IMG/VR virus record: IMGVR_UViG_3300031539_000002
Strand: one strand, 5' to 3'
From: a virus
DNA length: 64,000 nt
Both the position numbers and the translations under genes were made by a program. The stretch's first letter is position 1. Each line of letters begins with the position of its first letter. Below the pieces are notes generated by a model that had not been told where the DNA came from, made no database searches, and was given only the letters and a program-made list of their open reading frames with translations. This document shows, piece by piece, positions 6,006-58,535 of this stretch.

Positions 6006-6188
6006 ATGCGACTGCGAGGAGACATCGAGCTCCACCTCGGGATCGACCGCAGGTGGTACGTCGTCGAGCGCCGAACCTTCAATCCAGAGGGCCGGATCAT
6101 CGGGCGCCCCGAGGGCTACAGCTCCCATCATGAAGCCAGACGGTGGAGAACCCTGTACCGCGCTGTCCGCGAACTCCAAGTCGCCTAG
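6006..6188 (+). CDS. Small hypothetical protein
   Basis: 60-aa ORF with ATG 2 nt after the upstream stop; fills the gap. Confidence 0.45.
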   Translation: MRLRGDIELHLGIDRRWYVVERRTFNPEGRIIGRPEGYSSHHEARRWRTLYRAVRELQVA

Positions 6189-6211
6189 GGAGAGTAAAAC
6201 CTCTGCTAGGG

Positions 6212-21318: not shown

Positions 21319-21540
21319 ATGCCGTCGATCAACCTCAGGAAGTACAACCGAGTCGCGCTCGAGGCAGAGCTCGCAGGGAAGTCCAACTACGAGGGGCCCC
21401 CTTGCAAGGCTTTTTCCAAGCATGTGGGCTCGGCTGGTACGACGACACGCGACACTGTGCGCCGCACTTGCAACCTCTGTGAGAGGCAGAAAGTGAAGGC
21501 GTGGCAGGAAAGACAGACAGAACGATGCACTTCGACGTAG
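21319..21540 (+). CDS. Small putative zinc-binding protein
   Basis: GPPC...H...CNLC pattern; AAGGGA upstream of ATG 21319. Confidence 0.5.
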   Translation: MPSINLRKYNRVALEAELAGKSNYEGPPCKAFSKHVGSAGTTTRDTVRRTCNLCERQKVKAWQERQTERCTST

Positions 21541-32687: not shown

Positions 32688-33299
32688 ATGTCAAGTGTAT
32701 GGGCTGATTGCCGTTCTGTAGATCCCTCCGAACTCGAAAGCCGCGTAAGCGTGGCTGACAACATGGAGTTCCTTGGACAGATTCTGTCTGAGGAGCCCAC
32801 CGAAGAATCCATTCGGAATTTGGAACGGGTTCGCGACATCATGTTGGAGCTGCCCCTTCGGGAAGCGGACTTCGTCGAACTCTACTTCTTCAACCACAAG
32901 ACGCAGACCGACATCGCGGAGATCTTCCGAGTCAGCCAGCCGACCGTTTGCTACCGGCTCCAGCGAGCTACGGCTCGCATCCGGTTTGTTCTCAGTTTGC
33001 CGGACATCTCCGAAGCTGAGATGGAGATCGCGCTCCGCGGCTTCTTGGGTGACGAGGAGGATGTGGAGATCATGATGCGGATGTACGAGACGACCTGTCA
33101 GAGTGCCGTCGCCAAGGCGATGGAGATCACTCAGGGCAAGGTGCGTCATCGGTTCATGCGGTCAACGAAGCGGATGCTCGAAAACCCGCAGATGCAGCAA
33201 TATGCGAAGATTTTCCAAGCCATTGCGGAAAACTTGAACATCATGCGGGAAGTGGATCGGCCGAAGTGGGACGAGAAGGTCCATTTCGTCGTGGACTGA
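32688..33299 (+). CDS. Sigma-70 region-4-like tandem HTH transcription factor
   Basis: LPLREADFVELYFFNHKTQTDIAEIFRVSQPTVCYRL and a second HTH QSAVAKAMEITQGKVRHRF. Confidence 0.72.
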   Translation: MSSVWADCRSVDPSELESRVSVADNMEFLGQILSEEPTEESIRNLERVRDIMLELPLREADFVELYFFNHKTQTDIAEIFRVSQPTVCYRLQRATARIRFVLSLPDISEAEMEIALRGFLGDEEDVEIMMRMYETTCQSAVAKAMEITQGKVRHRFMRSTKRMLENPQMQQYAKIFQAIAENLNIMREVDRPKWDEKVHFVVD

Positions 33300-33310: not shown

Positions 33311-33334
33311 GGTTTTCGTCCTATCTCAGCCCTT
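33311..33334 (+). promoter_or_regulatory. Putative late promoter motif GGTTTTCG-N3-TAT...CCCTT
   Basis: GGTTTTCGTCCTATCTCAGCCCTT; recurs at 37169 and 46760. Confidence 0.55.
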
Positions 33335-37168: not shown

Positions 37169-37193
37169 GGTTTTCGCCTTATAGGCATCCCTT
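37169..37193 (+). promoter_or_regulatory. Putative late promoter motif
   Basis: GGTTTTCGCCTTATAGGCATCCCTT in an intergenic gap. Confidence 0.55.
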
Positions 37194-42088: not shown

Positions 42089-43993
42089 GTGGCAGGCAAA
42101 GCTTCCAGCAACCTCGCCCGGATCGCTCTCAACGCCGGGCGCCTCAAGATTGAGGGAGGCAGACGTGAAGTTGTTGACATCATCACCTTCATCGAAGCCG
42201 ACTGGGGTCTGAAGTTCAAGCTCTGGCCCGTCCAGAGAGTCATTCTCAAGGCGCACTACGGCATCGAGCTCGACGACAATCCTGCCAACAAGTTCAAGAT
42301 CACGGACTGGAAGCGGGAGAACGAGCAGTGGTTCACTGAGGCGGAGTACCTGCGGTGGAAGCACGAACGCGGCGAGTGCAACATCGCTGAGGTCGTCCCG
42401 GGGCATGAGCGTCGCAACCTGATTCTGCCCATTGGGCGCCGGTCGGGTAAGACGACGATCTCTGCGTGCATCGCTGCCTACGAGACGTACAAGCTGATCA
42501 ACAAGGGCAACCCGCAGAGCTATTACGGGCTCGCCCCTTCCAACCCGATCCGTCTCATCTCAGTTGCGACTGGCAAGGACCAGGCCGGTCTCCTCTACGA
42601 AGAGGTCAGCCACCACTTCGCCAAGTGCAACTTCTTCAAGCGCTACACAGCGAACAACACGCTGTCCTACGCGCGTTTCCAGACTCCTCACGACATCGAT
42701 GAGTTTGGCGCCTACTCGGAGAACCCCCGAGCTCGTGCAAGCGTCCGCGTCTCCTTCGCAGCTTGTAACGCCAAGAGCCTCCGCGGGTCTGGCAACGTCG
42801 TCATCATCCTCGATGAGGTTGCCCACTTCCTCGAGCAGGGCGGCAGCTCGGCCGAGGAGGTCTACACAGCGCTGTCTCCGTCAAACAAGGCGTTCACACC
42901 GAAGGATGAGTACGGAGAGAACATCTACGGAGAGGCCACTGAATCTGAGGGTCGGATCATCATGATCTCGTCGCCCCTCGGCAGGCAGGGGCTGTTCTAC
43001 GAGAAGTTCAAACAGGCGATGGGTGGCGGCGAGTCCACCACGAACATGCTCGCTGTGCAGGCGCCTACGTGGGAGGTCAACCCGACCATGTCCGCGGCGG
43101 CGTTCAAAGAGGAGTACGCCTTCGACCCCCGTAAGTTCGCGGTCGAGTTCGGGGCGGAGTTTTCCGACCGGACCCTCGGTTGGCTTGAGGACGACCAAGA
43201 CTTGTGGGCCTGCGTCGACAAGAGCCTACGAGCTCGTCATCGAGGACAACCTCGCTTGGCCTATTTCGTTGGATTCGACCTTGGTCTCGTCAACGATGCG
43301 TCTTCGATCGCCATCACGCACATCGATCCTGATGGCCGCATCATCCTCGATTACATCGGCAAGATGCAGGCCGGGGAGGGCGAGTACGCCGACTACGACC
43401 GCCTTGAGTTCGAGGACGTGGCCAACTGGATTCACCTTCTCTCGCGTCGATTCCGTTTCTACAAGGGTCTGTTCGATCAATGGGGAGCGATCCCTCTTGA
43501 GCAGGCACTCGCCAAGAAGGGGCTCACGATGCTCGAGGGCAAGCTGTTCACGGCGCCCGAGAAGAGCCAGATCTGGCAGAACTTCAAGTCGATGATGTGG
43601 GACCGCATTGGCGGCAAGCCCCGCCTCGGGTTCTACGACATCACGGACCGCGAGAAGCAGGAGTACATCCGGCGCGAAGAGAAGCCTCCTGAGCACCTTG
43701 AGTACCTTGAGGAGCTGCGGTCTCTCCAAGCCACCTTCAAGAGCAAGTACATCATCCACGTCGAAGCCCCGCAGTCGGATGGGAAACACGACGACATGGC
43801 AGACGCCTTGGCGCGTTCGATCTACTTGGCGAGTCAGCATCTCGGGAAGCTCAAGCACATCGCGGGTTCAAGGACGAACGCGGACCCCAATCAGCCACAA
43901 GTGTCTGCGAAGGTCCGTCGTTTGAACCATCGGAAACGTCTCGCCGGGGGCTCCGATCCAAAGCGGATGGTCCCCAGGAAGCGGAGGCGATAG
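42089..43993 (+). CDS. terL: Terminase large subunit
   Basis: LWPVQ Q-motif, Walker A GRRSGKT, Walker B IILDE, ISSP coupling motif, EFGAEF, nuclease GFDLG and HDDMADA. Confidence 0.92.
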   Translation: MAGKASSNLARIALNAGRLKIEGGRREVVDIITFIEADWGLKFKLWPVQRVILKAHYGIELDDNPANKFKITDWKRENEQWFTEAEYLRWKHERGECNIAEVVPGHERRNLILPIGRRSGKTTISACIAAYETYKLINKGNPQSYYGLAPSNPIRLISVATGKDQAGLLYEEVSHHFAKCNFFKRYTANNTLSYARFQTPHDIDEFGAYSENPRARASVRVSFAACNAKSLRGSGNVVIILDEVAHFLEQGGSSAEEVYTALSPSNKAFTPKDEYGENIYGEATESEGRIIMISSPLGRQGLFYEKFKQAMGGGESTTNMLAVQAPTWEVNPTMSAAAFKEEYAFDPRKFAVEFGAEFSDRTLGWLEDDQDLWACVDKSLRARHRGQPRLAYFVGFDLGLVNDASSIAITHIDPDGRIILDYIGKMQAGEGEYADYDRLEFEDVANWIHLLSRRFRFYKGLFDQWGAIPLEQALAKKGLTMLEGKLFTAPEKSQIWQNFKSMMWDRIGGKPRLGFYDITDREKQEYIRREEKPPEHLEYLEELRSLQATFKSKYIIHVEAPQSDGKHDDMADALARSIYLASQHLGKLKHIAGSRTNADPNQPQVSAKVRRLNHRKRLAGGSDPKRMVPRKRRR

Positions 43994-44772: not shown

Positions 44773-46758
44773 ATGCCAGCGGAAGGATCAGGTAAAGCAA
44801 TCGCCGGACCAGCGTCAACGACGGTTCGGACAAACGAGGGCGCACGCGTCGTGGCTGAGGTGCCGAACCATCGGACTCAGGTTCGCATTGGCAAGCCGTC
44901 CCGGGTGGTCGTTGGATCGATGCGCTCGCAAAACAAGTCGAGCTTCCGAGCAAGGGTGGCCGCTTCTTGCGGCCCCGGCAGCGGTGGCTTTGGCGGGACC
45001 GGTGGCGCATACGGCGGTGGCGGTGGCGGTGGTGGTGGCGGCGGGTTCGGAGGCAACGGGGGTGGTGGCGCAGTTGCCCAAGCATCCGCGGGCAACTTCT
45101 ATTCGCCCGAGCTGTCGACGGACTTCCTTGAGCTTCCGCAGTCTCTCAACGAGCAGTGGAACTACTACCGATTCTTCTACAACAACGAGCCGTTCGTCGG
45201 GCAGGCCCTTGACCTGCACACTGAGCTGCCGTTGTCGAAGGTCCGCCTTGCTCGCCCCAAGGCCAAAAGCAAGGCGCTTGCAGACCGGGCACTCCGTTTC
45301 TGCGAGAAGTGGGTCGAGGGCATCGGACTGCTGCAACGGCTGCTGGAGATCGTCCACGACTACTTCCTCATCGGGGAGGTCTACATCTTCTGCGAGGATG
45401 CCAACCCCGACATGCCTCGGGAGGTTCGGCAGAAGGTCGTCCGTCGCGTGGAGCACGACGGCACTCTCACAGAGCAGTGGATCGACCGCGAAGAGGCCGA
45501 TGACCTCGCTGTTGAATGGCTCAAGCAGAACTACAAGGGGCTCACGAACGTCCGCATCCTACCTCCTGAGCAGGTGCACATCCAGACGTTCCCGTTCACG
45601 GATGAAGTGATCATCGAGCTTATCCCTGACTCCAAGACGAAGCACGTCCTCGAGATGGCTGAGCAGGGGGACCGCAACGCACAACGCGTGGCAGATTCTA
45701 TGGACCCTGTGGTCATCGAGGCTCTTCGTCGCGGTGACAACATCCCGCTGTCCACGGACCCTGATGGGGGCTCGTTCGTCCACTACATGGCGAACAAGAA
45801 GTCGCAGTACGAGCCGCGCGGCCACAGCATCCTCCAGCGATGCCTCCGTACGCTCGTGTACTTCGACAAACTCCGTCAGGCGCAGACGAGTATCGCTTCG
45901 CGCCACATGACTCCTGTGCGTCTCGTCTACGCCGAGGACATGAGCGAGGCCGACACGGAGAACCTGCGCGACCAGATTGACCTCGCGCTCCAAGACCCCG
46001 ACTACTCGATCGTCACGAACTTCCAGGTCACCTGGGAGGAGATGAACTCAAACGGCCGTCTCCTTGAGCTCACGGGAGAGTACGACCTCATCAGCCGTCA
46101 GCTCTACGCGGGCCTTGGTGTGACTGAGACGTTGCTCAACGGTGAGTCGAGCTACTCGGGTGACCGCATCAACCTCGAGGTCATCAACACGCGCTACATG
46201 CTGCTTCGTGAAAACGTGCAGCGCCTCGTCGAGCAGTACTTCTTCAAGCCGATGTGTCGACGCATGGGCTTCGTGGAGGAGGACGAGGACGGCGAGATGG
46301 TGGTCATCTACCCGAAGCTGAGCTTCACCAGGCTCGCGCTCCGGGACAATCAGGACACCTTCGATGCCCTGTTCCAGCTCTACCAGAAGGGCAGCCTGGA
46401 CATCGAGACGATCCTCGACCTGCTCAACATCGACCCGGTCATGGTCAAGGAGCGCCTCGAGCGAGACTTCGCCACGTTCAACGATGCGCAGTTCAACGAA
46501 GTCCTTCGTTCGGTCTACGGCCGGTCGGGCGACCAACTCGCCGAGAACTCCAACATCGTCAACAAGATCGCGGAACAGCTCGGGCTCGAGTACAGCAAGC
46601 CCGAAGAGCCTGGCATGGGCCGATTCGCGTCCCTCAAGACCGCATCAGAGGGGGGTCTCCAAATTGGTGACGACATGGTTTCCAAGATCGCTGATGCAGT
46701 GGTCGAACGGCTCATGGGGACGCGGAAGGCGCCCGGAGAGCCCTCTGACGAGTCTTAG
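44773..46758 (+). CDS. Portal protein
   Basis: Downstream of TerL. YRFFY..EPFVGQALDLH..LPLS, YFLIGEVY and YEPRGHSILQRC are portal-like; Gly-rich N-terminal extension. Confidence 0.78.
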   Translation: MPAEGSGKAIAGPASTTVRTNEGARVVAEVPNHRTQVRIGKPSRVVVGSMRSQNKSSFRARVAASCGPGSGGFGGTGGAYGGGGGGGGGGGFGGNGGGGAVAQASAGNFYSPELSTDFLELPQSLNEQWNYYRFFYNNEPFVGQALDLHTELPLSKVRLARPKAKSKALADRALRFCEKWVEGIGLLQRLLEIVHDYFLIGEVYIFCEDANPDMPREVRQKVVRRVEHDGTLTEQWIDREEADDLAVEWLKQNYKGLTNVRILPPEQVHIQTFPFTDEVIIELIPDSKTKHVLEMAEQGDRNAQRVADSMDPVVIEALRRGDNIPLSTDPDGGSFVHYMANKKSQYEPRGHSILQRCLRTLVYFDKLRQAQTSIASRHMTPVRLVYAEDMSEADTENLRDQIDLALQDPDYSIVTNFQVTWEEMNSNGRLLELTGEYDLISRQLYAGLGVTETLLNGESSYSGDRINLEVINTRYMLLRENVQRLVEQYFFKPMCRRMGFVEEDEDGEMVVIYPKLSFTRLALRDNQDTFDALFQLYQKGSLDIETILDLLNIDPVMVKERLERDFATFNDAQFNEVLRSVYGRSGDQLAENSNIVNKIAEQLGLEYSKPEEPGMGRFASLKTASEGGLQIGDDMVSKIADAVVERLMGTRKAPGEPSDES

Positions 46759-46759
46759 C

Positions 46760-46783
46760 GGTTTTCGGTCTATCGCGGCCCTT
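46760..46783 (+). promoter_or_regulatory. Putative late promoter motif
   Basis: GGTTTTCGGTCTATCGCGGCCCTT directly before the 2H-CCA gene. Confidence 0.55.
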
Positions 46784-46799
46784 CTAGCGGAGGGTTCGC

Positions 46800-48923
46800 G
46801 TGCCCCAGCCTGCGCCACAGAACTTCACGAAAATCGCTAACCGCGTCGTCCAGAGATGGATGCGGCGAAGTGTGCGTGTGGCCAAAGCGACGGGGACCAA
46901 GACCGGCCAAGGCGAATCGGTCGGGCTGTTCATCCCGCTCCCGAAGGACCTGGCCAAGCAGTTCCCAGACTTGGGGAAGAACGACTCTTCCCCCTCTCAT
47001 GTCACCTTCCTCTACATCGGGGATTTCAAGGACAAGGAGCAGCAAGAAAAACTCGTCGAGGTCCTCCGCGAGACGATGCGGAAGTGGTGGCCCGGAGCCA
47101 AGGCCACCCTCAATGGCCTTGAGTACTTCGACCACCACGACAAGGACCGTCGTGTCCCCCACGTCGCCGTCGATTTCGACAAGGACCTGAGCGGGTTCAA
47201 ACACCGCGTCAAGCAGGAACTCAGCGACGAAGGCATCGAGGTCGGTGACAAGTTCCCTGAGTTCAAGCCTCACGTCACCCTCTCGTACATGCCCGGCATG
47301 GACTCGGAGTGGGAAGGGGAGGTGCCCGAAGGGTCCTGGAACTTCGATGAGATGGAGGTCTGGGGGCTCCCCGAGCTCCACACCATCAAACTCGGACCCT
47401 CGGAGAAGAAGGTCGCCGCATCCTGGCTCCGAGGCAAGGTGGCCGGCTGGTGGGCCATCTCCCCCGGCAACCCAGGGATCAACCCGCCTCCCGTGGACAA
47501 GGGCGGCCTACTGAATGCACTCCCTGGCACAGACCCCGATAGCGCCCGCTACAACGGAGACGGGCCGGCTGACATCATGGGCAATGCGCTCGCTGCCGTG
47601 AACCAGGAGTATATTGACGCGTGGAAGCGTCCTGCGACTCCCGAGGAGATGCAGGCAGTCTTCGACTTCGTCTACGGAGGATTCGAGCGAGCACCCGAGC
47701 ACTACCTCCCCAAAGGCGATTCTGTCAGCCTCCGGGTAGCGGCTCGTTACATGCAGTCTTCCGTCCATCGCAAAAACATCTCCCTCATGAAGTGGCTCTC
47801 GCAACTGACCCGTCGATTGGGGGTTGGCCGGGACACGTACGTCGTGGGTGGTGCTGTGCGGAACTTTTTGATCGATCAGCCGATCAAGGACATCGACATT
47901 GTCATCGATACCACGAAGGCTGGCCGTGACTCTGACTGGCTCGCCAAGCAGATCGCTCGCAACATCCCAGCTCCCACGAACGTCACCACGAATCAATATG
48001 GCGTCGCCATCCTGACCGTGAAGGGGACGTGGATGATCGGAGGGGACGACCTCAACGGCGAAGTCCTTGAGATCGCCAACGCTCGCAAGGAAAGCTATGG
48101 GGGCCAGGGCGGCAAGGGCTACAAGCCTCACGCAGTCGCCCCTGCCACAATCGATGAGGACGTGCTTCGACGCGAGTTCACGTTCAACACGCTGCTATGG
48201 CGCATGATGGACTTGGCCCATGGTCCTGACAAAGCCGAGATCATCGACCTCACTGGCTGCGGTCGTCGTGACCTCGATCAGCGTGTGGTTCGTTGTCCGC
48301 AAGACCCCGACAAGGTGTTTTCGGATGACCCGACTCGGATGCTCCGGGCCATCAAGTTCACCGGCAAGTACGGCTTCAAGATTCCTCCCGATGTGGTGCG
48401 CTCCATCAAGCGCAACGTCTCCAAGCTCAAGCGCATGCCGTGGGAGGCTGTGGCGTCGATTCTCGTGAACGACGTGATGAGTCAGCCGACTGCTCGCAAG
48501 TCTCTCAAGCAGATGAAGGACCTTGGGTTGCTCGACACTGTGTCGGAGATGATCCAGGAGCAGAAGCCGTTCGCCACGTACATGAGCAACCAGCTCCGTC
48601 GCAACCGCAAGGTCCAGTTCTTGCTCGACCTCCTCGAGCTGGGCGTCCCCGCATCGACGCCGATCTCGTTTCTCGACCGCGCAGGCCAGCAGCGGTTGCG
48701 AGACCTGACTGTTTCGATGCCTGAGAAGGAGGCCGTCGCCTTCGTCGAGAATCTCATCAAGCCTCCTGTGGACAACAAGCGCATCATCGACGTGCTCAAG
48801 TTGGAGGGCCCCGATCGCCGTCACATCACCCCGACTGCTCGGCATCTGATCCTGCAAAATCCCGAGCTCGCGTCCAAGGGACAGCATCTCACTGACGCTG
48901 TCATCAAGGGATTGAGGAAGTGA
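46800..48923 (+). CDS. Fusion of a 2H phosphoesterase, a small unknown domain and a class II CCA-type tRNA nucleotidyltransferase
   Basis: HVTF (46998) and HVTL (47271) HxT pair; VVGGAVRN...KDIDI, EDVLRREFTFN, DDPTRMLRAIKF. Confidence 0.85.
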   Translation: MPQPAPQNFTKIANRVVQRWMRRSVRVAKATGTKTGQGESVGLFIPLPKDLAKQFPDLGKNDSSPSHVTFLYIGDFKDKEQQEKLVEVLRETMRKWWPGAKATLNGLEYFDHHDKDRRVPHVAVDFDKDLSGFKHRVKQELSDEGIEVGDKFPEFKPHVTLSYMPGMDSEWEGEVPEGSWNFDEMEVWGLPELHTIKLGPSEKKVAASWLRGKVAGWWAISPGNPGINPPPVDKGGLLNALPGTDPDSARYNGDGPADIMGNALAAVNQEYIDAWKRPATPEEMQAVFDFVYGGFERAPEHYLPKGDSVSLRVAARYMQSSVHRKNISLMKWLSQLTRRLGVGRDTYVVGGAVRNFLIDQPIKDIDIVIDTTKAGRDSDWLAKQIARNIPAPTNVTTNQYGVAILTVKGTWMIGGDDLNGEVLEIANARKESYGGQGGKGYKPHAVAPATIDEDVLRREFTFNTLLWRMMDLAHGPDKAEIIDLTGCGRRDLDQRVVRCPQDPDKVFSDDPTRMLRAIKFTGKYGFKIPPDVVRSIKRNVSKLKRMPWEAVASILVNDVMSQPTARKSLKQMKDLGLLDTVSEMIQEQKPFATYMSNQLRRNRKVQFLLDLLELGVPASTPISFLDRAGQQRLRDLTVSMPEKEAVAFVENLIKPPVDNKRIIDVLKLEGPDRRHITPTARHLILQNPELASKGQHLTDAVIKGLRK

Positions 48924-51900
48924 ACGCTCTCGTCGCACGCGTGGCTGCACGCCACATGGCTGCTCAGGATGATTTCTCCGTGGGCGACGAGGTGCTGTTT
49001 GGCAAGTACAAGAACAAGCGCGGCAAGATCGTGCGTCTGTTTGAGGATGAACGCGGCATCCCATCCGTCGAGATTGAGCCCATCCCCAAGGGTCGCAAAC
49101 AGAACCGTGTGATCGGCCTCTACAAGATCTGGAAGGGCGACCATCGCAAGCAGGCCGCGTACTCCAAGGAGTTTTTGGAGTTCGTTCAGGGACGCCGTTT
49201 CCAAAACCCCGACACCGGCAACCAAGTCTTGTTCCAGAGCCTTGAGGTTCCTGAGCAGGTCAAGATTTACCAGCAGTGGGGTGCCGCACAGAACGCCCAA
49301 GAAGAGAAGCCTGAGGGCCGAGAGCGCCACGAGCCCGGAAGGCTCCCGCCTGCGTGGAACCGTGACTCGGACATGGCACGTAAGGTAGAGAAACTCGCGG
49401 AAGAGTACGCGACGGAGTACGAGGATTTCTTTGACGGAATGCGACAAGTGTCCGTGGAGGACGAGCGCTATCGAGGGGCCGAATTCGCGGGCGAGGCGGT
49501 TATGCTCCGCGAGTGGGACCGTCACATCCCTGGGTACGTGCGGTTGCCCCCCTCTTCCACTTTGGAGGCTATGAGCGACGAAGATCGGCGCATCGCGCTG
49601 ACTTCATGGGACGCCGGTGTCAAGTTCATGGACGAGGTGCTTGGGGATGGTGAACGTCTTTCCCTTTTAGAGACCATGAAGCCTTCGGGAGAAGGAGGGT
49701 CGCTGGGGTCCCCCGGAGAAGGCTGGATCGACTCGACCCACAGCCCTGGAGCCCAACGTCTGCAAGGAGCTCTCCGAGAGTTGGGTATCGAGACACACCT
49801 GCCGTCTCGAGGCATCGAAGACCATGCAAAATGGCGTGACGAAGGGGCATCGAACGACCTACTCAAGAGTGCGTTGACGAAGGCGATGGCATGGCAACGC
49901 GCCTACTTCGCTGCGATGGGTGTTGAGGATGTGATGCTTTTCCGGGGAGCCAGTCTCGGTGACGAGGTGGCACGTCAACAGGAGCCCCACCCAACCGACA
50001 AACAGCAGAAATATCTTCCTCAAGGGATTCCGGTCACGTTGCAGAGTCGCCAGGAACTCTCGAGTTTCACGATGGACCCTTACGTTGCCTACAACTTCAC
50101 TCATCGAAATCGGAGTCCGGGAGAGAGTGACGAGAGCTACGAGAGTCGGGCGGGGAATTCCCTTCGCGGAGCAGTGGCGTACCGGGTTCCTGTTGACCGG
50201 ATTGTTTTGTCCCCAGCCGCAATCCCACAGCTCGGGCCTGCAACTCCGAAAATCAAGGAGGGCTACCGAGAGGTCGAGTTCATTGTGGGGGGCATTGGGG
50301 AACTTGAAGGGCGCACGCTGCCTTCACTGGATGCGGGATACGGAGCGGGCCGGTACGACCCCGAGAAGATGAAGCTCGCGACCAAGATCACCATCGAGAT
50401 GTCCGACGAAGACGAGGATGCGTGGCATAAGAGCGTGCGACGCGAGAACAAGGGCGACCGCCGCAAACAGGCCGCGTACTCCAAGGAGTTTTTGGACTCT
50501 GTGCAGGGGCAGCGGTTCCGCAACCCCGACACAGGCAACAAGGTCGTTTTCAAGTCGCTCTCCGAAGCAGAGCAACGGAAGATCCACGAGCGATGGGAGG
50601 CCCGTCATCGTAGCCAAGACGCGTCGGGGCCCACGGTGACAGAGCGCGGCCGTACCTTCGAGACAGGCAAGCCCGTTGCGTTTGAGTTCCTCCGCAACAC
50701 TGAGAAGGCTCCCAAGGCCCCTTCGGATTCGGACCCGTACCAGCAGAAGATCGAGCCCGCAGGGTTCTATGTGACCCACAAGGACACGGACGGGGACCCA
50801 CTCCCGGGCTACGACACGGGCACCATCAGTTTTCAGAACCCGCTCGTGCTCGCGGTCAACACCAACCCTGATGGCCCGATCTACGACGAGAACTCTTGGA
50901 AGGCGCAACTCGAGCGTCAGTACGGCAAGCGTGGAAAGGCCCTCACCAAGGCCCTCCAAGCTGACGGATACGACGGCATCGTGACCGTCACCCAAGTTCG
51001 TGGAAAGCCCTACACGTCCGAGATTGTTGTGCTCGACTCCGAAAAGTCTGTGCAGAAGGGCGACGACCGTAAGCGCAGGGCACAAGAGATCGCGGGCATG
51101 GGGTACGAGGCGGCGGCGCAGCTCGACAACGATGAACTTGATAGTGTGGCGTTTGGCGTGAAGCAGGGGGTCCAAGACCTTCGCATCGACCAGCTCAAGG
51201 TCAAGTACGACGCGGATCTTGAGCAGGCTGAGCATGCGGTGTCTCGAGAGCCCGACCGCTGGAAGGAACACCTTGATGAGCCTATTGAGGTCCGTTTCAA
51301 GGATGGGGAGTTCCACATCGAGGACGGCCACCATCGGTACGTGACGGCCCAGCGCATGGGCCGCGACAGCGTGAAGGTGGACCTGACTATCGATGACAAC
51401 CCTGTGAAGAAGATCTTTGAAATGGCCGGCAAGAAAATGGCTTCCTTCCATCGTGAAGCGTGCATCATCGCCGGCCGTCGGTTCGGAGACAGTCTGTGTC
51501 TCATCAAGAACCGCGACCGTGCCTACGACGCAGAGCTCGAGATCGTGCACCTGGAGAAGGACGGCACCGAGATGGCTGTCATCCTCGATACCGTGACCGG
51601 GTACATGGAGGGCGTCAACGAGCACGGGATCGCGGTCGTCAACACAACTCTGATGGTTGTGCGCGACGAAGCCGAGGGCAAGAAGAAGTCCCCCAACGGA
51701 GACAAGGGCAAGAAGCCCCTCACGTCCAAGGACGGCCCCAAGATCTACCGCGCCCTGGCGTGTGACAACATTGAGGATGCCCTTGAGTCCTTGCGCACGG
51801 ACGACAACGGTATTCGGGGCCATACCTTCGTGGCCGACGGCAACAAGTTGTTCTCCATTGAGTGCAGCAAGACGCACCCAGCTCGCGTAACGGAACTCGA

Positions 51901-54900
51901 CCCAGACCGCGTCAACACTCGAACGAACCACGGCGTCTCGTACCCCGATGCCGGGTACACGCACGGCGAGGACTACGTTAGTTCCGTCGTGCGTCGGTGG
52001 GAGGCACAGAAACGTCTGCAGGACATCAAGCGTCCTGAGGCGGCAGCCGTGGCCCTCATTGAGGCGATCGATGAGGCTGACAGCCCGTTCAATCCGGTCC
52101 GCACCACGGACAAGATGCGAACGACGAGCCAGCTTACCATCGACACGACCAACCCGAGGTTGCTGCTCTATCTGATCCCTGGCCACGCCAAGGTCGTCAA
52201 GCGTCGCAACACGCTGCCGGATGGGCGCAAGCCCAAGATCCCTGTCCGTGTCTTCAAATACCGCAACAAGATGGAAGACCGGAAGAAGCCGGTCAACAAA
52301 GACGCCGCCTTGATCGAACGCGTCGCAGCCCGATCATTGGACAAGCTCCCCGGTGGGTTGGCCGATGAGAAGAAGCCTGAGGATTTCGATCCCGAACAGA
52401 TCGCCAAGGGCACTAAGGTCGAGCTTGAGCATACGGATGACCGTGCAGTGGCCCGTGAAGTGGCGATGGATCATCTCACTGAGGACCCGAAGTACTACGA
52501 CAAGCTTGAGACCATCGAGAAGCACGGCGCCCGCTACAAGTCCAAGAAGAAGGTCAAGACCAAGGACGGCGACGAGATGACGGTCTACGAGTACAGCGAC
52601 CGTCAAATCGCTGATCGGAACCGGGGCAAAGCAGAACGCATCGAGAAACTGCGCAAGCAGATGAAGAAGCTCCAGACCAAGGTCCGCAAGGACGTGAACT
52701 CCAAGGACGAGAAGACTCGTGACCTCGCGCTGGCAGTCGGCTTGATGGACGAGACCTTTGAGCGTGTTGGCAACGACGGGAGCGCCAAGGAAGGCCACTT
52801 CGGCGTCACCACCTGGCGGGTGAAGCACATGACCTTCGGTAAGGGCGGCGTCACGATCACGTACGTCGGCAAGTCGGGGGTTGACCAGAAGAAGAAGGTC
52901 ACGAACCCGCGCATCGTTTCGGGTCTCAAGGACGCCTGCAAAGACAAGGAGCCCAACGCTTGCGTCCTGAGCGTCACGGCTTCCGAAGTCAACGAATACC
53001 TCAAGCCGCTCGACATCACCGCCAAGGACATCCGAGGGTTCCACGCGAACCAGAAGATGAAAGAGGAACTCCGAAAGGTCCGCAAGGGGAAGCTCCCCGA
53101 AGACCCCAAGGAGAAAGAGAAGAAGCTCAAGGACGAGTTCAAGAGTGCCCTCGAGGCCACTGCTGACGCGGTAGGCCACGAGGCATCAACCTTGCGCAGC
53201 CAATACCTCGTCCCAGGCCTGGAGGATGACTACATGAGAGACGGGACCGTCAATGAGAGTCACACCAAAAAGGGCTCTACCCTCCACACCGCGGCGTTGG
53301 ACGGAACCCCAACAGAGCGCCACATCCTTGCCCATGCCCAACTCGCTCCGGTCCTGGTAACCGCCAACCGACGTTGGTGGATTCAAAAAGCTCCGAACCT
53401 GTACCGAATCGCGCGTGAAGACGAGAGGCCGCGCCCCCATATCGAGGGTGTTCGTTTCCCGCCAGAGGTCTTCACAGTGCTCTGGTACGAGGACGACGAC
53501 GGCAATCGCTATGAGATGCCCGAGGATGGTCCCGAGCATCCCGAAGGCGCCAAGTACCAACTCAGCCAGTTCCCGAACTACCTGCACGACAGCATGTTGC
53601 AGCTCAACGAGGATGGCACCTCTACGGAGATCATGAGCGGTCAGCGAGGGTTCCCTGAGGACCTTGTGACCTCCATGGTGCGCAGCGGCGAGTGGGACGT
53701 GGGCGACGCCATCATGGTCGGCGGCACGAGCTGCGAGCGCTGCATGAACGTCTTGTGCAATCGCTACTTGGGCCCGGAGGAAGGCTACCCCTACGACTCG
53801 GAAGAGTATTGGCAGTGCGGGACCCGATGCGCCATGTGTGGGCACGTCGACAACACCAACGAGCGGGTGGTCCGACAGCCCCGCTATGCGTCTCCGAGCT
53901 ACGACAGTTACGTCCAGCGCAAGCGCAGAGAAGGCGGCCCTGTGCTGTCCCGTGATGAATGGGAAGCCAAGGTCATGGGCGTCGAAGATGACGCTGACGA
54001 GACCCCTGAGGCTACCCGTGAAGACTGGGAGGCCCGTCGCAATGCTCTCATGGAGGAGCACGGCCTCGACAAGTTCCATTCGTCGTACCGTCCTGACGAG
54101 AAGCACATGACGATTGACCTCATCTCCGTTCCCAAGGAGAACAAGGGTCAAGGCAGTGCTTCAAAGGCCATGAAAGAGACGCTGGCGTGGGCTGACTCCA
54201 ACGGCGTCACGGTCACGTTGTCGCCAACTTCTGAGTTCGGTGCCTCCAAGAAGCGCCTTGAGAAGTGGTATCGCAGCATGGGCTTCGTGCCGAACAAGGG
54301 GCGCAACAAAGACTTCCGGTTCACAGACGCGATGCTCCGCGAGCCGCAGGCCAAAACGGCCACGAAATCCGATGCGGAGAACGAAGATGAGGCGGTGGCG
54401 AAGATGCTCCGCAAGGAGCCCAAACTCAAGCCTCCGCGCTACGACCTTCGTGACAACCGTACTCTCGACGACGACGACCCTGAGGACGATCTTGGCGGTG
54501 GCGATGACGGCGACCGCGACATGTCCATGAAGTGGAACAAGGTGGCGAGCCGCGTGGCTTTCCGTTGGACAGCGATTGGGCCTCGAGTCCCACGACCTGA
54601 ACGCGTTGCTCGACTGTTCTTGGCGGAGGCGCCCCCAAAGGACAAAGCCCAGCCCAAGAGCGGTCCGAGCTTCGAGGAGTGGGTCAAGAACCAGAAATTC
54701 AAGCACCCTGAGACCAGCAACGATGTTGGGTTCTCATCGCTCCCCTCTGACGAGCAGGCCAAGATCCGCGAGAAGTGGAAGGGTCAGCAACAGCCTGAGG
54801 ATGAGAGCGGCAAGGACAAGGGGAAGGGTGATGAGGATGCGAAGCGCACCAAAGAAGACGTGCAGGTCGACCTCAATAACGCGCGCGACGAGATGCGGGA

Positions 54901-57900
54901 CCTAGAGTCCCAGATGGGCGACATCGAGAACGAGATCAAAGACCTCGAGGCCAAACTTAAAGGGTTCAAGCAGTACGAAAATCTCTCAGGCGATGCCAAG
55001 AAGCAGATAGACGAGCATGTTCGGGACACCCAACGTGCCATTGGCCGCAAGAAGGATGAACTTGAGGACAAGAAGGAAGAGTTCGACGAAGCGAAGGAGA
55101 AGGTCAAAGAGCTCAGGGCTGAGCGAAAGGACCCCGGCTTCGCTCAAGCCAAGCGCAAGGAGCAGGCTCGCAAGCAGCGAGCCGAACGGGTGAGCCGTGC
55201 TGTCCTCAAGGCGCAAGGAGACATGCAGAAACTCCTCGGTAACGAGGATACCCAGATCCCAGGGGTCCTTGCCAAGCAGATTGCCAAGGCACTCAACAAC
55301 CTCGATGAGTCTGAGGTGGAGTCCTTTTCGATTGATTTTCAGGACACGCTCCAAAAGTTGATGGGGATGGACTCGAGTTCGGATGAGGCACTTGAGTTGG
55401 CGTCTCAAGCCGCCAAGTTTGGTGACCTCCATGGCCTTACTGATCCGGGGGAGTTGGCCGTGCGAATGGCTCAGCTCAGCTATGCGCAGAACGTCGTCGC
55501 CAATCCGATGAACATCGGGGGAAAGCCGGTCGGCGTCACGGAGATGGACAGTGACAAGTACGCCGAACGTGCTCGCGCATCCTACGACCAGTTTCAGAAC
55601 CTGCCGTCCTCTTTGCGTACGCAGGCTGCGAGGCAAGTGACGGAGGCGCTCGAGGGTCTGGACCCTGAGACGCACCGCTCACAGGAACTCAATGCCATTT
55701 TGACGGGCATGAACCTTGCTCAGGTGGCGGCGACGGGGGACTCCCTCCCAGGGCGCCCTCAACCGAGCAAAGGGATGGCGTCAGTCATCCAAGCGATGGC
55801 TGAAAAGGGCGATGTTGATGCCCTCTTCACTACTTCGGAGGACTACTTTGCAGAGCAAGCTCGCGGGAAGATGGAGAAGAGTCTTGATGACATGACGCCA
55901 CTTGAGGTGGCTCAGTTGGCCACACAAGGGGATTCCAATCACGGCTACGCGGGGATGGTCAAATTGATTGAGGAGGAGTCTACGCCTGATGTCATGAGAG
56001 CCATGATGAAAGACTATCTTATCCAAGACATCCTCAACGATCAGTGGGGCGACCGAGCCATCCGCGACACGATGCAGGCTGCGGGTCTTGTGGATGCTGA
56101 TGACCCCGAGGTACGCGCAGGAGTGGTGGGTGAAGCTAACGAGCGCATGAAGCCTCGGATGGAGCAGATGCTTGAGGCGCGGGAGCGTATTGCTCAAGCC
56201 GAGAAAGAAGGCAAAAAACCGGATCCCGAAGACGAGGCCATTGTTGCAGGCGTCTTGGACAAGGAAAAGGGTACCGGTCTACGTGAGAAGGCGAAGGCTG
56301 TTCTCGATACGATCAAGGACAAGTTCAAGAAGGTCGTCATCTCCCCGGCGAGCGCGGTGCTCCAGCACTTCGTCAACACGGGTGACCGAAAAGTGCTCGA
56401 GCAAGAGACGCTGCCACATCCTGATGAGAAGGCCAAAGCACCTCGTCCCAAGGAAGAGCGTGATGAGGCTCGTGGAGGCGAGAGCACGGCACCGAAGTCG
56501 AAGCGCGAGCGCATGATCGAACGTGTGCGTCTCAAGGCTGAGAGGGTCAAGCTCAAGGCACAGCGCGACAAGGTGAAGGGCGACGAGAAGGGCAAGTACG
56601 ACGAGAAGATCAAGGACCTCGATGGGAAGATCGAGGGCCTGTCGAAAGAGCCTGAGAGCGACGAGTCCGAGAGCGAGCAGCCCAAATCCCGCGAGGATTA
56701 CCGAGCGAAGTTCGATGGCTCGACGTGGGGTGACGACGACGCGGGCACCGAGTACCACGTCGGGGATCTCATCCATAAGGCTGAGTCCAAGGAGGTCGAA
56801 GAGGTTCCGATCGCGGACATCGAGGAGAGCCTCAAGAATATCTCGGCAGACGAGCCGGTGGGTTCGCCCGAGTTCAAAGAGCGAGCTGACAAGGCCGACC
56901 TCAAGTATCCCGTCGTTCTCATGCGACAGGAAGACGGCTCCCTCGAGATCGTGGATGGCTCCCATCGAGCTTGGAAGGCACGCGAGACGAAGCAGCCGTT
57001 GAAGGCTCGGATTCTGGAGCCCGCCGATCTTGAAGATCTTGAGCAGGTCTCCGACGCTGATCGTGAAAAGTGGGACGAAAACGTCGAGTCTCAGGACGAC
57101 GAGGAGCACGGCCCCGGCGACGTTTGGGAGACCGAGCAGGGCAACTGGCGCGCCAAGAACCCGGACGGCGTCCCCAAATCATTCAAGGACAAGGACAAGG
57201 CTGAGATCTACGCCAAGGGCCCAGACGAGAAGGAGTCCGAGGGGAGCGCTGAGAAGCCCAAGGGAGCGCCCGACGAGGCTGAGGGGAAAGGCCAAGCCGA
57301 GAAGGACGAAACGGCTGAGGGAGCGTCTGAGGGAGCGTCTGAGGGCGCCTCTGAGAAGCCCAAACAGCAGCGCCGGGCCGTCAAGGACGAGCACTTCGAC
57401 CGCACGCAGGATGCTGTGGACTCCGTAGGAGCACCCATCCAGGAGAGCTTTACGAAGCTGGCGGACGACCCTGCTTTCCTCAAGATGAGCCCGCAAGAGC
57501 GATACACGCGTCTCGGAGAGACGCTCAAGGAGGCCATTCCTGGTGCTCGAGCGATCCAAGTGCCTGGGGCCGGTTCTAACGCTCCCATCAGCATCACGGT
57601 GCCCGAGGAACACCGAGCTCCCGGCGTGACCTCCCGGCAGAAGATTCGCTTGCAGCCCAACAGCACGGGTGGCGAGGCGTCGGGTAAGGGCGGCCATCTG
57701 GGGCTCGGTGTGAAGGACCTGCTTGAGGCCAAGACGCCCGAGGAGATCAAGAATGCGACTGCGCGGGTCATGGGCACGATGGTGCATGAGATGACCCACA
57801 TTTACGGGCATCATGGGACCAACCCCGATGAGTTTGACGATGAGGACAAGAAGGTGCGCCACATCCGATACATCTCGGACCCGGGGGAGATGCGGGCCCA

Positions 57901-58297
57901 CGCGAAGGAATTCGCGTGGCGTTACGCTCAGGACCACCCCGATGAGGGGGAGGTCGACATCGACAAATTAGAAGAGGCTCACAAGGGAGTGGGTAAGGAT
58001 TGGAAGATCCGGCAGTACTTCCAACAGCTCGGTGACAAGGAAGTCCAAGCCAAGTACGACCCTGAGGTCCAGAAGCTCATGCAGGACACGCATGAGGAGA
58101 TGGGCGACTTGGTGCAGCACTACGTCGACGAGTACCGGAAGCGCAATGGCCAACAGCGCAAGATGGGGAGCCGCGTGGCCCAAGCGTGGCTCGAGAAGGA
58201 ACGTCCCGTTCGCATGGCGAATGACTGGTTGGCACACGTCCGTTCGTTCCATCCAGACGACCCAAAACGTCCGATTGTCGTGCTCGACGCGGCTTGA
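48920..58297 (+). CDS. 3125-aa polyvalent protein: ART x2, ParB-like x2, Ntn hydrolase, DUF5661-like, topoisomerase IB, Cys-rich domain, GNAT, coiled coil, zincin
   Basis: FRG/SSFT/EVE; GFY..NPL..GYDG..EIVV; IEDGHHR and IVDGSHR; CII..KNRDR; ERVG/GKSG/KDIR/VGH/QYL; KGQG...WYRSMGF; HEMTH. Confidence 0.88.
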   Translation: MNALVARVAARHMAAQDDFSVGDEVLFGKYKNKRGKIVRLFEDERGIPSVEIEPIPKGRKQNRVIGLYKIWKGDHRKQAAYSKEFLEFVQGRRFQNPDTGNQVLFQSLEVPEQVKIYQQWGAAQNAQEEKPEGRERHEPGRLPPAWNRDSDMARKVEKLAEEYATEYEDFFDGMRQVSVEDERYRGAEFAGEAVMLREWDRHIPGYVRLPPSSTLEAMSDEDRRIALTSWDAGVKFMDEVLGDGERLSLLETMKPSGEGGSLGSPGEGWIDSTHSPGAQRLQGALRELGIETHLPSRGIEDHAKWRDEGASNDLLKSALTKAMAWQRAYFAAMGVEDVMLFRGASLGDEVARQQEPHPTDKQQKYLPQGIPVTLQSRQELSSFTMDPYVAYNFTHRNRSPGESDESYESRAGNSLRGAVAYRVPVDRIVLSPAAIPQLGPATPKIKEGYREVEFIVGGIGELEGRTLPSLDAGYGAGRYDPEKMKLATKITIEMSDEDEDAWHKSVRRENKGDRRKQAAYSKEFLDSVQGQRFRNPDTGNKVVFKSLSEAEQRKIHERWEARHRSQDASGPTVTERGRTFETGKPVAFEFLRNTEKAPKAPSDSDPYQQKIEPAGFYVTHKDTDGDPLPGYDTGTISFQNPLVLAVNTNPDGPIYDENSWKAQLERQYGKRGKALTKALQADGYDGIVTVTQVRGKPYTSEIVVLDSEKSVQKGDDRKRRAQEIAGMGYEAAAQLDNDELDSVAFGVKQGVQDLRIDQLKVKYDADLEQAEHAVSREPDRWKEHLDEPIEVRFKDGEFHIEDGHHRYVTAQRMGRDSVKVDLTIDDNPVKKIFEMAGKKMASFHREACIIAGRRFGDSLCLIKNRDRAYDAELEIVHLEKDGTEMAVILDTVTGYMEGVNEHGIAVVNTTLMVVRDEAEGKKKSPNGDKGKKPLTSKDGPKIYRALACDNIEDALESLRTDDNGIRGHTFVADGNKLFSIECSKTHPARVTELDPDRVNTRTNHGVSYPDAGYTHGEDYVSSVVRRWEAQKRLQDIKRPEAAAVALIEAIDEADSPFNPVRTTDKMRTTSQLTIDTTNPRLLLYLIPGHAKVVKRRNTLPDGRKPKIPVRVFKYRNKMEDRKKPVNKDAALIERVAARSLDKLPGGLADEKKPEDFDPEQIAKGTKVELEHTDDRAVAREVAMDHLTEDPKYYDKLETIEKHGARYKSKKKVKTKDGDEMTVYEYSDRQIADRNRGKAERIEKLRKQMKKLQTKVRKDVNSKDEKTRDLALAVGLMDETFERVGNDGSAKEGHFGVTTWRVKHMTFGKGGVTITYVGKSGVDQKKKVTNPRIVSGLKDACKDKEPNACVLSVTASEVNEYLKPLDITAKDIRGFHANQKMKEELRKVRKGKLPEDPKEKEKKLKDEFKSALEATADAVGHEASTLRSQYLVPGLEDDYMRDGTVNESHTKKGSTLHTAALDGTPTERHILAHAQLAPVLVTANRRWWIQKAPNLYRIAREDERPRPHIEGVRFPPEVFTVLWYEDDDGNRYEMPEDGPEHPEGAKYQLSQFPNYLHDSMLQLNEDGTSTEIMSGQRGFPEDLVTSMVRSGEWDVGDAIMVGGTSCERCMNVLCNRYLGPEEGYPYDSEEYWQCGTRCAMCGHVDNTNERVVRQPRYASPSYDSYVQRKRREGGPVLSRDEWEAKVMGVEDDADETPEATREDWEARRNALMEEHGLDKFHSSYRPDEKHMTIDLISVPKENKGQGSASKAMKETLAWADSNGVTVTLSPTSEFGASKKRLEKWYRSMGFVPNKGRNKDFRFTDAMLREPQAKTATKSDAENEDEAVAKMLRKEPKLKPPRYDLRDNRTLDDDDPEDDLGGGDDGDRDMSMKWNKVASRVAFRWTAIGPRVPRPERVARLFLAEAPPKDKAQPKSGPSFEEWVKNQKFKHPETSNDVGFSSLPSDEQAKIREKWKGQQQPEDESGKDKGKGDEDAKRTKEDVQVDLNNARDEMRDLESQMGDIENEIKDLEAKLKGFKQYENLSGDAKKQIDEHVRDTQRAIGRKKDELEDKKEEFDEAKEKVKELRAERKDPGFAQAKRKEQARKQRAERVSRAVLKAQGDMQKLLGNEDTQIPGVLAKQIAKALNNLDESEVESFSIDFQDTLQKLMGMDSSSDEALELASQAAKFGDLHGLTDPGELAVRMAQLSYAQNVVANPMNIGGKPVGVTEMDSDKYAERARASYDQFQNLPSSLRTQAARQVTEALEGLDPETHRSQELNAILTGMNLAQVAATGDSLPGRPQPSKGMASVIQAMAEKGDVDALFTTSEDYFAEQARGKMEKSLDDMTPLEVAQLATQGDSNHGYAGMVKLIEEESTPDVMRAMMKDYLIQDILNDQWGDRAIRDTMQAAGLVDADDPEVRAGVVGEANERMKPRMEQMLEARERIAQAEKEGKKPDPEDEAIVAGVLDKEKGTGLREKAKAVLDTIKDKFKKVVISPASAVLQHFVNTGDRKVLEQETLPHPDEKAKAPRPKEERDEARGGESTAPKSKRERMIERVRLKAERVKLKAQRDKVKGDEKGKYDEKIKDLDGKIEGLSKEPESDESESEQPKSREDYRAKFDGSTWGDDDAGTEYHVGDLIHKAESKEVEEVPIADIEESLKNISADEPVGSPEFKERADKADLKYPVVLMRQEDGSLEIVDGSHRAWKARETKQPLKARILEPADLEDLEQVSDADREKWDENVESQDDEEHGPGDVWETEQGNWRAKNPDGVPKSFKDKDKAEIYAKGPDEKESEGSAEKPKGAPDEAEGKGQAEKDETAEGASEGASEGASEKPKQQRRAVKDEHFDRTQDAVDSVGAPIQESFTKLADDPAFLKMSPQERYTRLGETLKEAIPGARAIQVPGAGSNAPISITVPEEHRAPGVTSRQKIRLQPNSTGGEASGKGGHLGLGVKDLLEAKTPEEIKNATARVMGTMVHEMTHIYGHHGTNPDEFDDEDKKVRHIRYISDPGEMRAHAKEFAWRYAQDHPDEGEVDIDKLEEAHKGVGKDWKIRQYFQQLGDKEVQAKYDPEVQKLMQDTHEEMGDLVQHYVDEYRKRNGQQRKMGSRVAQAWLEKERPVRMANDWLAHVRSFHPDDPKRPIVVLDAA

Positions 58298-58519: not shown

Positions 58520-58535
58520 GTTTTTCACCTTATAG
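58520..58535 (+). promoter_or_regulatory. Putative late promoter motif variant
   Basis: GTTTTTCACCTTATAG resembles GGTTTTCGCCTTATAG at 37169. Confidence 0.4.

Follow-up and report, generated by a model that had tools for sequence, protein, structure and literature searches.

A phage-encoded 2H phosphoesterase–class II nucleotidyltransferase fusion, a predicted tRNA 3′-end repair enzyme of the head module

A 64,000-nucleotide (nt) stretch of viral DNA, IMG/VR record IMGVR_UViG_3300031539_000002 (called the window below), encodes on its + strand, between the portal gene and the gene for a 3125-amino-acid (aa) polyvalent protein, a 707-aa protein, P0001, in which a 2H phosphoesterase domain is joined through a family-less linker to a class II nucleotidyltransferase. 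We consider it somewhat more probable than not, by analogy, that P0001 is the phage counterpart of the bacterial CCA addition and repair enzyme, with a 2H domain in the place of the HD domain. An initial annotation, made from the letters of the window, had proposed this fusion and had linked it to tRNA-end repair and/or to evasion of the cyclic oligonucleotide-based antiphage signaling system (CBASS). The open reading frame (ORF) and the domain calls were confirmed by Pfam, motifs and fold, and the repair half of the proposal gained support from homology and context; the anti-CBASS half did not. We infer that the substrate is tRNA, that the product is CCA, that the two activities are coupled and that the protein is packaged. 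The architecture is a new combination of parts that are already known separately, namely phage CCA enzymes, polyvalent 2H domains and bacterial Cca. No description of a 2H-transferase architecture was found in the literature searched, which did not cover the RNA-repair review of Burroughs and Aravind (2016).

Two catalytic domains on one polypeptide

The features of the gene, all on the + strand, are as follows.

46789-46794, +: Shine-Dalgarno sequence GGAGGG, 5 nt 5′ of the GTG start, read from the sequence
46800-48923, +: 2H/linker/class II nucleotidyltransferase gene, protein P0001, 707 aa (GTG at 46800, TGA at 48921-48923)
46821-46868, +: N-terminal helix, aa 8-23, with border motif RVVQRWM at aa 15-21 (predicted helix and motif scan)
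46902-47399, +: 2H domain, aa ~35-200, with a LigT/ThpR-like fold (Pfam, structure model and profile)
46998-47006, +: first 2H catalytic motif, H67-V-T69, extended form HxTxxY (conservation count)
47271-47279, +: second 2H catalytic motif, H158-V-T160, extended form HxTxxY, with Y163 at the position of ThpR Arg130
47406-47447, +: border helix, aa 203-216, KVAASWL (aa 204-210) followed by KVAGWW (predicted helix 202-212)
47436-47714, +: family-less linker domain, aa ~213-305, with a conserved extended stretch PPVDKGGLLNALPG..DP..YNGDGPAD and then two helices
47733-47759, +: border motif, aa 312-320, with RVAARYM at aa 314-320, where the first helix of the transferase begins (predicted helix 308-324)
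47760-48920, +: class II (CCA/poly(A) family) transferase with head, neck, body and tail, aa ~321-707 (Pfam and model)
47889-47897, +: transferase motif A carboxylates D364-I-D366, with GGAVRN at aa 350-355
48168-48188, +: transferase motif B, R457-R458-E459-F-T-F-N463, RRE versus the RRD of cellular enzymes
48324-48359, +: transferase motif D, D509-D510-P-T-R513-MLRAIKF, the base-templating DDxxR, aligned to EDPxR of the Aquifex aeolicus (A. aeolicus) and P. halocryophilus enzymes
48920-48923, +: GTGA stop/start overlap with the next gene, which lies in the -1 frame

The N-terminus of P0001 is alignable to the homologue P0136 (318 aa). A protein identical to P0001 is on record from a JGI contig (102,757 bp) and homologues number in the hundreds; an exact look-up of P0002 returned no identical protein on record. 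PHROGs labels the C-terminal part of P0001 a tRNA nucleotidyltransferase, and PADLOC, run on the whole of P0001, gave no match. A prediction of a complex between the 2H domain and the transferase, each with its own alignment, scored 0.00 and was uninformative either way.

The 2H domain is nearest to RNA cyclic phosphodiesterases

The segment aa ~35-200 belongs to the 2H superfamily. Pfam placed PF13563 (2_5_RNA_ligase2) at aa 64-165 with 29.3 bits (cut-off 27), and the HxT/HxT pair that had been read from the sequence corresponds to H67xT69 and H158xT160, whose four catalytic residues were invariant in 117/117 homologous 2H domains; Y163 was present in 116/117. An AlphaFold model made from 31 homologues had a predicted local distance difference test score (pLDDT) mostly >90 over aa 40-200. 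Foldseek and VIA-align agreed on its neighbours, with LigT/ThpR-type RNA 2′,3′-cyclic phosphodiesterases ranking first: the Deinococcus radiodurans CPDase 5h7e (VIA Z 15.0, root-mean-square deviation (rmsd) 3.6, 160 residues aligned), Bacillus subtilis YjcG (Z 14.6), Thermus thermophilus 1iuh (Z 14.2) and Escherichia coli LigT (Z 13.4). AKAP18 and Usb1 followed at Z about 13 (Usb1 12.9), then viral 2′,5′-phosphodiesterases at Z 11.5-12.0. A profile of 37 members of the 2H family searched against the PDB matched only LigT/ThpR-type chains (2fyh, 1vdx, 5h7e and 1iuh, with E values from 2e-6 to 1e-4), and no Acb1 or viral phosphodiesterase chain was found in that search.

Like ThpR/LigT of E. coli and the D. 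radiodurans CPDase, the domain has this fold (Z 13.4-15.0), two HxT motifs and an aromatic residue after the first (HxTxxY versus HxTxxF). The extended motifs of ThpR are HxTxxF and HxTxxR, the arginine contacting the phosphate (PMC4201822). Unlike ThpR, which is free-standing, the P0001 domain is fused, its second motif is HxTxxY and not HxTxxR, and it scored 33.5 bits with TIGR02258 against a cut-off of 65.7. It is thus ThpR-like in fold and not a strict ThpR/LigT member, because its extended motifs read HxTxxY twice.

The branch of the initial annotation that pointed to Acb1 and CBASS fared differently. Acb1 of phages T4 and FBB1 is also a 2H enzyme with two HxT motifs. Unlike it, the P0001 domain is larger, and the Pfam Acb1 model (PF23474) gave 14.7 bits against a cut-off of 27 over just 16 residues (aa 151-166) around the second HxT. 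The Acb1 structure 7t26 ranked beneath ~38 entries that comprised RNA cyclic phosphodiesterases, AKAP18, Usb1 and viral 2′,5′-phosphodiesterases (Z 8.8, rmsd 3.9, 127 aligned). Since the Acb1 match lies below its cut-off and the Z score is far lower than for RNA cyclic phosphodiesterases, the anti-CBASS reading is not supported.

The transferase is a class II enzyme with a shape nearest to CCA-adding enzymes

By its match to PF01743 (PolyA_pol head; aa 346-498, 56 bits, cut-off 23), the C-terminal domain is a class II nucleotidyltransferase. A model made from 32 homologues (pLDDT 93.7) aligned with class II enzymes over head, neck, body and tail. Its best structural matches were CCA-adding enzymes, 3h38 of Thermotoga maritima (VIA Z 21.9, rmsd 6.4, 314 aligned), 6qxn of P. 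halocryophilus (Z 21.0) and 1miv of B. stearothermophilus (Z 20.7); the A-adding enzyme 4wby (Z 19.8), the E. coli poly(A) polymerase 3aql (Z 17.8) and the CC-adding enzyme 3wfq (Z 17.5) came below them.

The catalytic residues were counted over 286 homologues. D364 and D366 of motif A were present in 285/286 and GGAVR in 283-284/286. Within motif B, R458 and N463 were found in 286/286, and position 459 was E in 267 and D in 19. D510, R513 and R516 of motif D were present in every homologue (286/286). The initial annotation had called a class II transferase with an EDxxR motif; the enzyme proved to be complete, and its motif D is D509-D510-P-T-R513, that is DDxxR. The literal E453-D-V-L-R457, probably what the initial annotation had picked up, lies immediately ahead of motif B (R457-R458-E459). 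HMMER alignment to 6ibp put the motif E site at E549-A-V-A-S-I, and a glycine-rich loop with lowered pLDDT (aa ~433-444), a candidate equivalent, stands at the place of the flexible loop, which in CCA-adding enzymes lies between motifs A and B and which CC-adding enzymes do not have. On the model, the transferase is a deep-branching class II enzyme with intact catalytic residues and a shape nearest to CCA-adding enzymes, and its product specificity is only predicted.

The fusion recurs in large uncultivated phages

An exhaustive search retrieved 317 representative proteins at E <1e-30. The transferase module (~390 aa, 45-84% identity among the retrieved proteins) was either stand-alone or fused, with partners that included 2H, a Trl1-type domain (PF08302), DUF5661, Fic, SOD, Nudix, ART-PolyVal (P0010, P0180, P0254 and P0257) and inteins. 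Among the partners were also phosphomonoesterases, namely a HAD domain of the Swiss-Army-Knife RNA-repair type (PF10307), PAP2 and HD, as well as an inorganic pyrophosphatase (PF18823) and an RNA ligase (PF09414). The 2H domain preceded the transferase in 63 of the retrieved metagenomic proteins and followed it in 39; when the 2H domain alone was the query, 25 of 55 long matches carried the transferase (PF01743). An end-healing toolkit fits because the partners in relatives are phosphomonoesterases, a pyrophosphatase, an RNA ligase and a Trl1-type domain. The link to RNA 3′-end healing made in the initial annotation accordingly held up, on the LigT/ThpR-type affinity of the 2H domain, the occurrence of the fusion in both orders and these repair-type partners.

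Inteins, recognised by LAGLIDADG_3 and Intein_splicing matches, interrupt the transferase in P0247, P0122, P0131, P0254 and P0270, and a portal gene of a relative (locus L001, 6510-9959) also has a LAGLIDADG_3 match; inteins in transferase and portal are a sign of very conserved, essential sequence.

The clade was found at 79 loci in IMG/VR, many of them on contigs of 200-536 kb. Among ~185,000 species genomes a close relative appeared in two contigs of metagenome-assembled genomes only, the remaining matches being cellular enzymes at 25-32% identity. A tblastn search of GenBank phages matched the transferase part only (23-32% identity); no record covered the 2H domain and no cultivated phage with the fusion was found. 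Judged by these collections, the transferase clade is virus-specific.

A small linker domain and border helices

The existence of a ~90-aa domain of no known family was upheld (aa ~213-305): Pfam at E 10 gave no match on aa 200-330 or on aa 1-40, and Protein Atlas gave no usable match on the linker. In the model of the middle segment (aa ~205-325) pLDDT was <50 for aa 205-250, and three helices were seen in aa 254-324. The linker module is detached from 2H in P0049, P0057, P0124 and P0134.

The KVA/RVA helices that had been placed at the domain borders were recovered as three motifs in predicted helices 8-23, 202-212 and 308-324. Within the window the pattern [RK]-[VI]-[AVG]-x-x-aromatic-[LMF] has 7 matches on the + strand (at 46842, 47409, 47733, 48938, 58172, 34209 and 93) and one on the - strand. 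It always falls at protein termini or domain borders; examples are RVAARYM, KVAASWL, RVAARHM, RVAQAWL and KVARQWL. A looser form stood at the domain border in 76/309 transferase and 45/117 2H domains of homologues, against ~4% expected; its commonest place was 5 residues ahead of the point where the transferase profile begins (47 cases). It is also present at the N-termini of transferases that stand alone in other phages. From its placement, the R/K-V-A border motif might serve to target proteins to the capsid or be a site of protease action.

The gene lies in the head module beside a polyvalent protein

The location in the head operon proposed earlier was borne out. The gene order is large terminase (42089-43993), a 150-aa ORF, portal, the P0001 gene and the 3125-aa protein, with a prohead-protease-like gene further on (60822-62330). 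The neighbouring features are as follows.

44773-46758, +: portal gene, directly 5′ of the P0001 gene (PHROG 16240 portal, E 1e-30)
46761-46773, +: promoter-like motif GTTTTCGGTCTAT, within the 41 nt that separate the portal gene from the P0001 gene (motif scan)
33312-33324, 37170-37182, 46761-46773 and 58521-58533, +: copies of the promoter-like motif GTTTTCRNYYTAT, each followed by CCCTT-like bases
48920-58297, +: 3125-aa polyvalent neighbour with topoisomerase IB (aa 1232-1424), DUF5661, peptidase C45/AAT-like and GNAT domains (Pfam)

In keeping with the late-promoter-like motif of the initial annotation, GTTTTCRNYYTAT was found in four copies in the window versus 0.61 expected by chance, all on the + strand and all just 5′ of gene starts. 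It is present at the same spot, after the portal, in the relative L001 on a 230-kb contig. The first copy lies directly 3′ of a gene with a sigma-70 region 4 domain (32688-33299), whose product might be the factor for GTTTTCRNYYTAT.

Locus L001 reads terminase, intein-bearing portal, an 854-aa 2H-transferase protein, two small genes and a 2044-aa topoisomerase-IB protein. On the 520-kb contig of L006 the portal is followed by a 3381-aa protein that starts with 2H and transferase and continues to topoisomerase IB, and the window portal is 64% identical to the gene preceding this fused protein. The order TerL, portal, 2H-transferase and topoisomerase-IB giant is thus kept in L001 and L006, fused in the latter; in L003 and L004 stand-alone transferases are encoded away from the portal region. 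Transferase and topoisomerase IB are combined in a single polypeptide in >60 giant relatives, with proteins of up to 3381 aa, and the counterparts of the 3125-aa neighbour have 2H and transferase at their N-terminus. Because L006 has 2H, transferase and topoisomerase IB in one post-portal protein, the P0001 gene is, to judge from synteny, the split-off N-terminus of a head-module polyvalent protein. It has the setting of one, with the portal on one side and, on the other, a 3125-aa multidomain protein with topoisomerase IB to which it is fused in relatives.

The P0001 gene and the next gene form a single reading frame in relatives (P0132). A programmed -1 frameshift into the next gene was considered and rejected, as no slippery site was present in 48860-48923. 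Because of this, and because GAGGA stands just 5′ of the GTG of the next gene, translational coupling of the two genes is the preferred reading of the sequence.

Several other features of the window were noted. The window portal has an N-terminal extension (44773-45100, aa ~60-105) with a long glycine run, GGGGGGGGGGFGGNGGGG; the extension is absent from the 563-aa L006 portal, whose alignment starts at aa 108. Two ParB-like motifs (DGHHRY/DGSHR) were also seen in the 3125-aa protein, as was a zincin-like motif, HEMTH, towards its C-terminus. Elsewhere in the window (21501-22679 and 6143-6790) the phage has genes for another nucleotidyltransferase of the RNA-repair type (RlaP, PF10127, E 1e-18) and for an AAA_33-type P-loop kinase. 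No RNA ligase was seen among the window ORFs scanned.

Relatives encode many tRNAs without CCA

The initial annotation had missed that relatives carry large tRNA sets in which CCA is mostly not encoded. Relatives have 31, 49 and 70 tRNA genes, 49 on a 497-kb and 70 on a 536-kb record. The closest syntenic relative, G001 (the 230-kb IMG/VR record that holds locus L033), has ~31 tRNA genes clustered at 96000-125700; among the 30 that were checked, CCA directly followed the tRNA in 13 and did not in 17. Another related contig (G004, rated 81% complete) has the transferase and no tRNA gene. Since relatives have large tRNA sets, many without encoded CCA, plain tRNA maturation is a serious co-explanation.

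A proposed route of tRNA 3′-end repair

The 2H domain would open the 2′,3′-cyclic phosphate at an RNA 3′ end, and such ends may come from metal-independent RNases, for example HEPN toxins that clip the CCA tails of tRNA. HEPN RNases are metal-independent and leave cyclic phosphates, so it is such ends that the 2H domain would have to open. The transferase would then put C, C and A on the tRNA 3′ end, template-free, and might also finish the phage's own tRNAs that have no encoded CCA. The P0001 gene may be transcribed from its own promoter-like site together with the neighbouring polyvalent protein, and P0001 would probably be loaded into the capsid and enter the cell along with the DNA; tRNA ends could then be repaired from the first minute of infection. 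In relatives, phosphomonoesterases would add to this toolkit, and a pyrophosphatase would pull the transfer reaction forward.

Clipping of CCA tails has precedents in bacterial defence. Cas12a3, acting in immunity, removes the CCA tails of tRNA by cleavage (PMC12851939), and HEPN-MNT systems have been described as clipping them (PMC12916289). Polyvalent proteins have been argued to be packaged and injected (Iyer et al. 2017, PMC5512222), and virion delivery of P0001 is plausible from its gene context.

The nearest functional model is bacterial Cca, which combines a class II transferase with an HD domain that removes 2′,3′-cyclic phosphates from tRNA ends, according to the passage of PMC10673834 that cites Yakunin 2004. 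Like Cca of E. coli and Rv3907c of Mycobacterium tuberculosis, P0001 has a class II transferase and a predicted cyclic-phosphate-opening domain on one polypeptide and keeps motifs A, B and D; the 2H domain would take the place of the HD phosphohydrolase. Unlike them, its putative healing domain is 2H and not HD and stands N-terminally behind a family-less linker, motif E is without its arginine, identity is ~20-25% (PRK10885 60 bits versus a cut-off of 451), and the clade is viral, in a head-module polyvalent context. Jumbo-phage CCA-adding enzymes, predicted to restore tRNA 3′ ends in conflict over tRNA (Iyer et al. 2021, PMC7824862), are like the P0001 transferase phage-encoded and class II. 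Unlike the CCA enzymes of GenBank phages, to which it is distant as given above, the P0001 clade has a 2H domain attached and forms part of polyvalent proteins that contain topoisomerase IB. The 2H domains of phage polyvalent proteins (PMC5512222) resemble that of P0001 in that they sit in multidomain proteins encoded in the head module near the portal, for which injection is predicted. No connection with RNA-repair enzymes was seen in that study, in contrast to the repeated joining of P0001-type 2H domains to the CCA-type transferase and, in some proteins, to RNA ligase or HAD.

Several observations weigh against this assignment. The arginine of the motif E pattern ERxxxE was Ala in 190, His in 56 and Arg in 8 of the 286 homologues, which the initial annotation had not noticed, and the full pattern, ERxxxExxxhh, tells CCA-adding from A-adding enzymes (PMC10673834). 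The product of the transferase is therefore unproven, this being a virus-specific clade without the motif E arginine. Motif B RRE and motif D DDxxR likewise depart from cellular enzymes. CCA specificity is also unproven because the NCBIfam models for CCA-adding, A-adding and PcnB enzymes all scored far under their cut-offs (TIGR02692 88 bits against 439; PRK13299 86 against 290; NF041569, A-adding, 53 against 1440; TIGR01942, PcnB, 95 against 306). On the 2H side, the second-motif arginine of ThpR is replaced by tyrosine. ThpR heals RNA ends with a cyclic phosphate, and its type of reaction leaves a 2′-phosphate (PMC4201822); no phosphomonoesterase that could remove it is evident in P0001. The transferase is missing from about half of the 2H relatives, and the commonest transferase partner is topoisomerase IB, which a CCA-repair model does not explain. 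Polyvalent proteins string together unrelated effectors, so that the fusion alone is no proof of a shared pathway, and their 2H domains have been read as RNases or signal-nucleotide degraders (Iyer et al. 2017, PMC5512222). Packaging is predicted from gene context only, and tRNA and Rfam scans of the 64-kb window found no tRNA gene.

Alternative readings

The alternative that comes closest, although we still think it unlikely, is ordinary housekeeping, in which the enzyme, synthesised late and left out of the virion, finishes the tRNA transcripts of the phage itself and owes its head-module location to an accident of gene order. The tRNA sets of relatives (31, 49 and 70 genes; 17 of 30 in G001 without encoded CCA), the frequency of CCA-adding enzymes in jumbo phages (PMC7824862) and the stand-alone copies outside the portal region in L003 and L004 all agree with it. 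However, a cyclic phosphodiesterase is not needed for tRNA maturation, and the post-portal place and the fusion to giant polyvalent proteins are kept across portals that are 64% identical and transferases that are ~48-71% identical. The N-termini of the stand-alone copies bear the border motif as well, and the window has no tRNA gene. A little less probable again is a virus-specific RNA 3′-tailing enzyme that adds a poly(A), oligo(C) or other tail and so marks host or phage RNAs, with a 2H domain that renders cyclic-phosphate ends extendable or, as Usb1 does, trims them. The clade-wide loss of the motif E arginine would suit such an enzyme, as would the top NCBIfam score, which belongs to the PcnB subfamily model (95 bits), the position of poly(A) polymerase ~4 Z units under CCA enzymes, the Usb1 match of the 2H domain (Z 12.9) and the related contig G004, rated 81% complete, with the transferase and no tRNA gene. 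Set against these points, the body and tail align best to tRNA-bound CCA-adding and A-adding enzymes, the Asp and Arg that template C and A are invariant, and most relatives have many CCA-less tRNA genes. Moreover, the poly(A)-polymerase signature [LIV][LIV]G[RK][RK]F, attributed to Martin and Keller (2004), was absent from all 329 proteins.

We regard as improbable, and as the weakest of the three, the idea that P0001 holds two independent cargo effectors, in which the 2H domain destroys immune signal nucleotides (2′-5′/3′-5′ cyclic oligonucleotides or 2-5A-like molecules, in the manner of Acb1 and anti-CBASS) and the transferase separately tends tRNA ends. A signal-nucleotide role has been proposed for the 2H domains of polyvalent proteins (Iyer et al. 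2017, PMC5512222), and the domain does occur without the transferase, beside Fic, SOD or topoisomerase IB. The viral 2′,5′-phosphodiesterases lie ~3 Z units under the best match (12.0 versus 15.0), and the relative P0330 has a precomputed Acb1 Pfam match. In P0001, by contrast, that Pfam match fell short of its cut-off (14.7 bits versus 27) and was confined to the 16 residues around the second HxT, the family profile reached no Acb1 or viral phosphodiesterase chain in the PDB, and 7t26 scored Z 8.8 where RNA cyclic phosphodiesterases scored 13-15. The recurrence of the 2H-transferase pairing in both orders also argues against unrelated cargo.

Implications for phage counter-defence

The assignment of P0001 as a phage counterpart of bacterial Cca leads to a broader proposal, which we put forward tentatively and think more doubtful than probable. 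It holds that a large clade of uncultivated big phages (contigs to ~536 kb) pre-loads its capsids with a tRNA 3′-end repair enzyme, made up of a cyclic-phosphate opener and a CCA rebuilder, which may be processed or addressed through the short R-V-A-x-x-aromatic border helices. If this were true, CCA-clipping immunity by HEPN toxins and Cas12a3-like nucleases would be neutralised before phage gene expression, and the enzyme would be the first RNA-repair activity to be brought in by a virion and would directly counter a class of defence that was recognised only recently.

The transferase clade is a good candidate for biochemistry of nucleotide counting and choice in class II enzymes, because it is abundant, virus-specific and highly conserved, with 45-84% identity among phages that otherwise have widely different genes, and because its motif E differs from that of cellular enzymes. 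Cutting of tRNA is a common bacterial route against phages, and cutting of the CCA tail has only just been shown, for Cas12a3 and HEPN-MNT. Phages are known to respond with spare tRNAs and with repair enzymes that are based on ligases and are produced once infection has begun. Healing and rebuilding of the tRNA 3′ end by a single enzyme would add a new layer to counter-defence, all the more so if that enzyme is carried in the virion.

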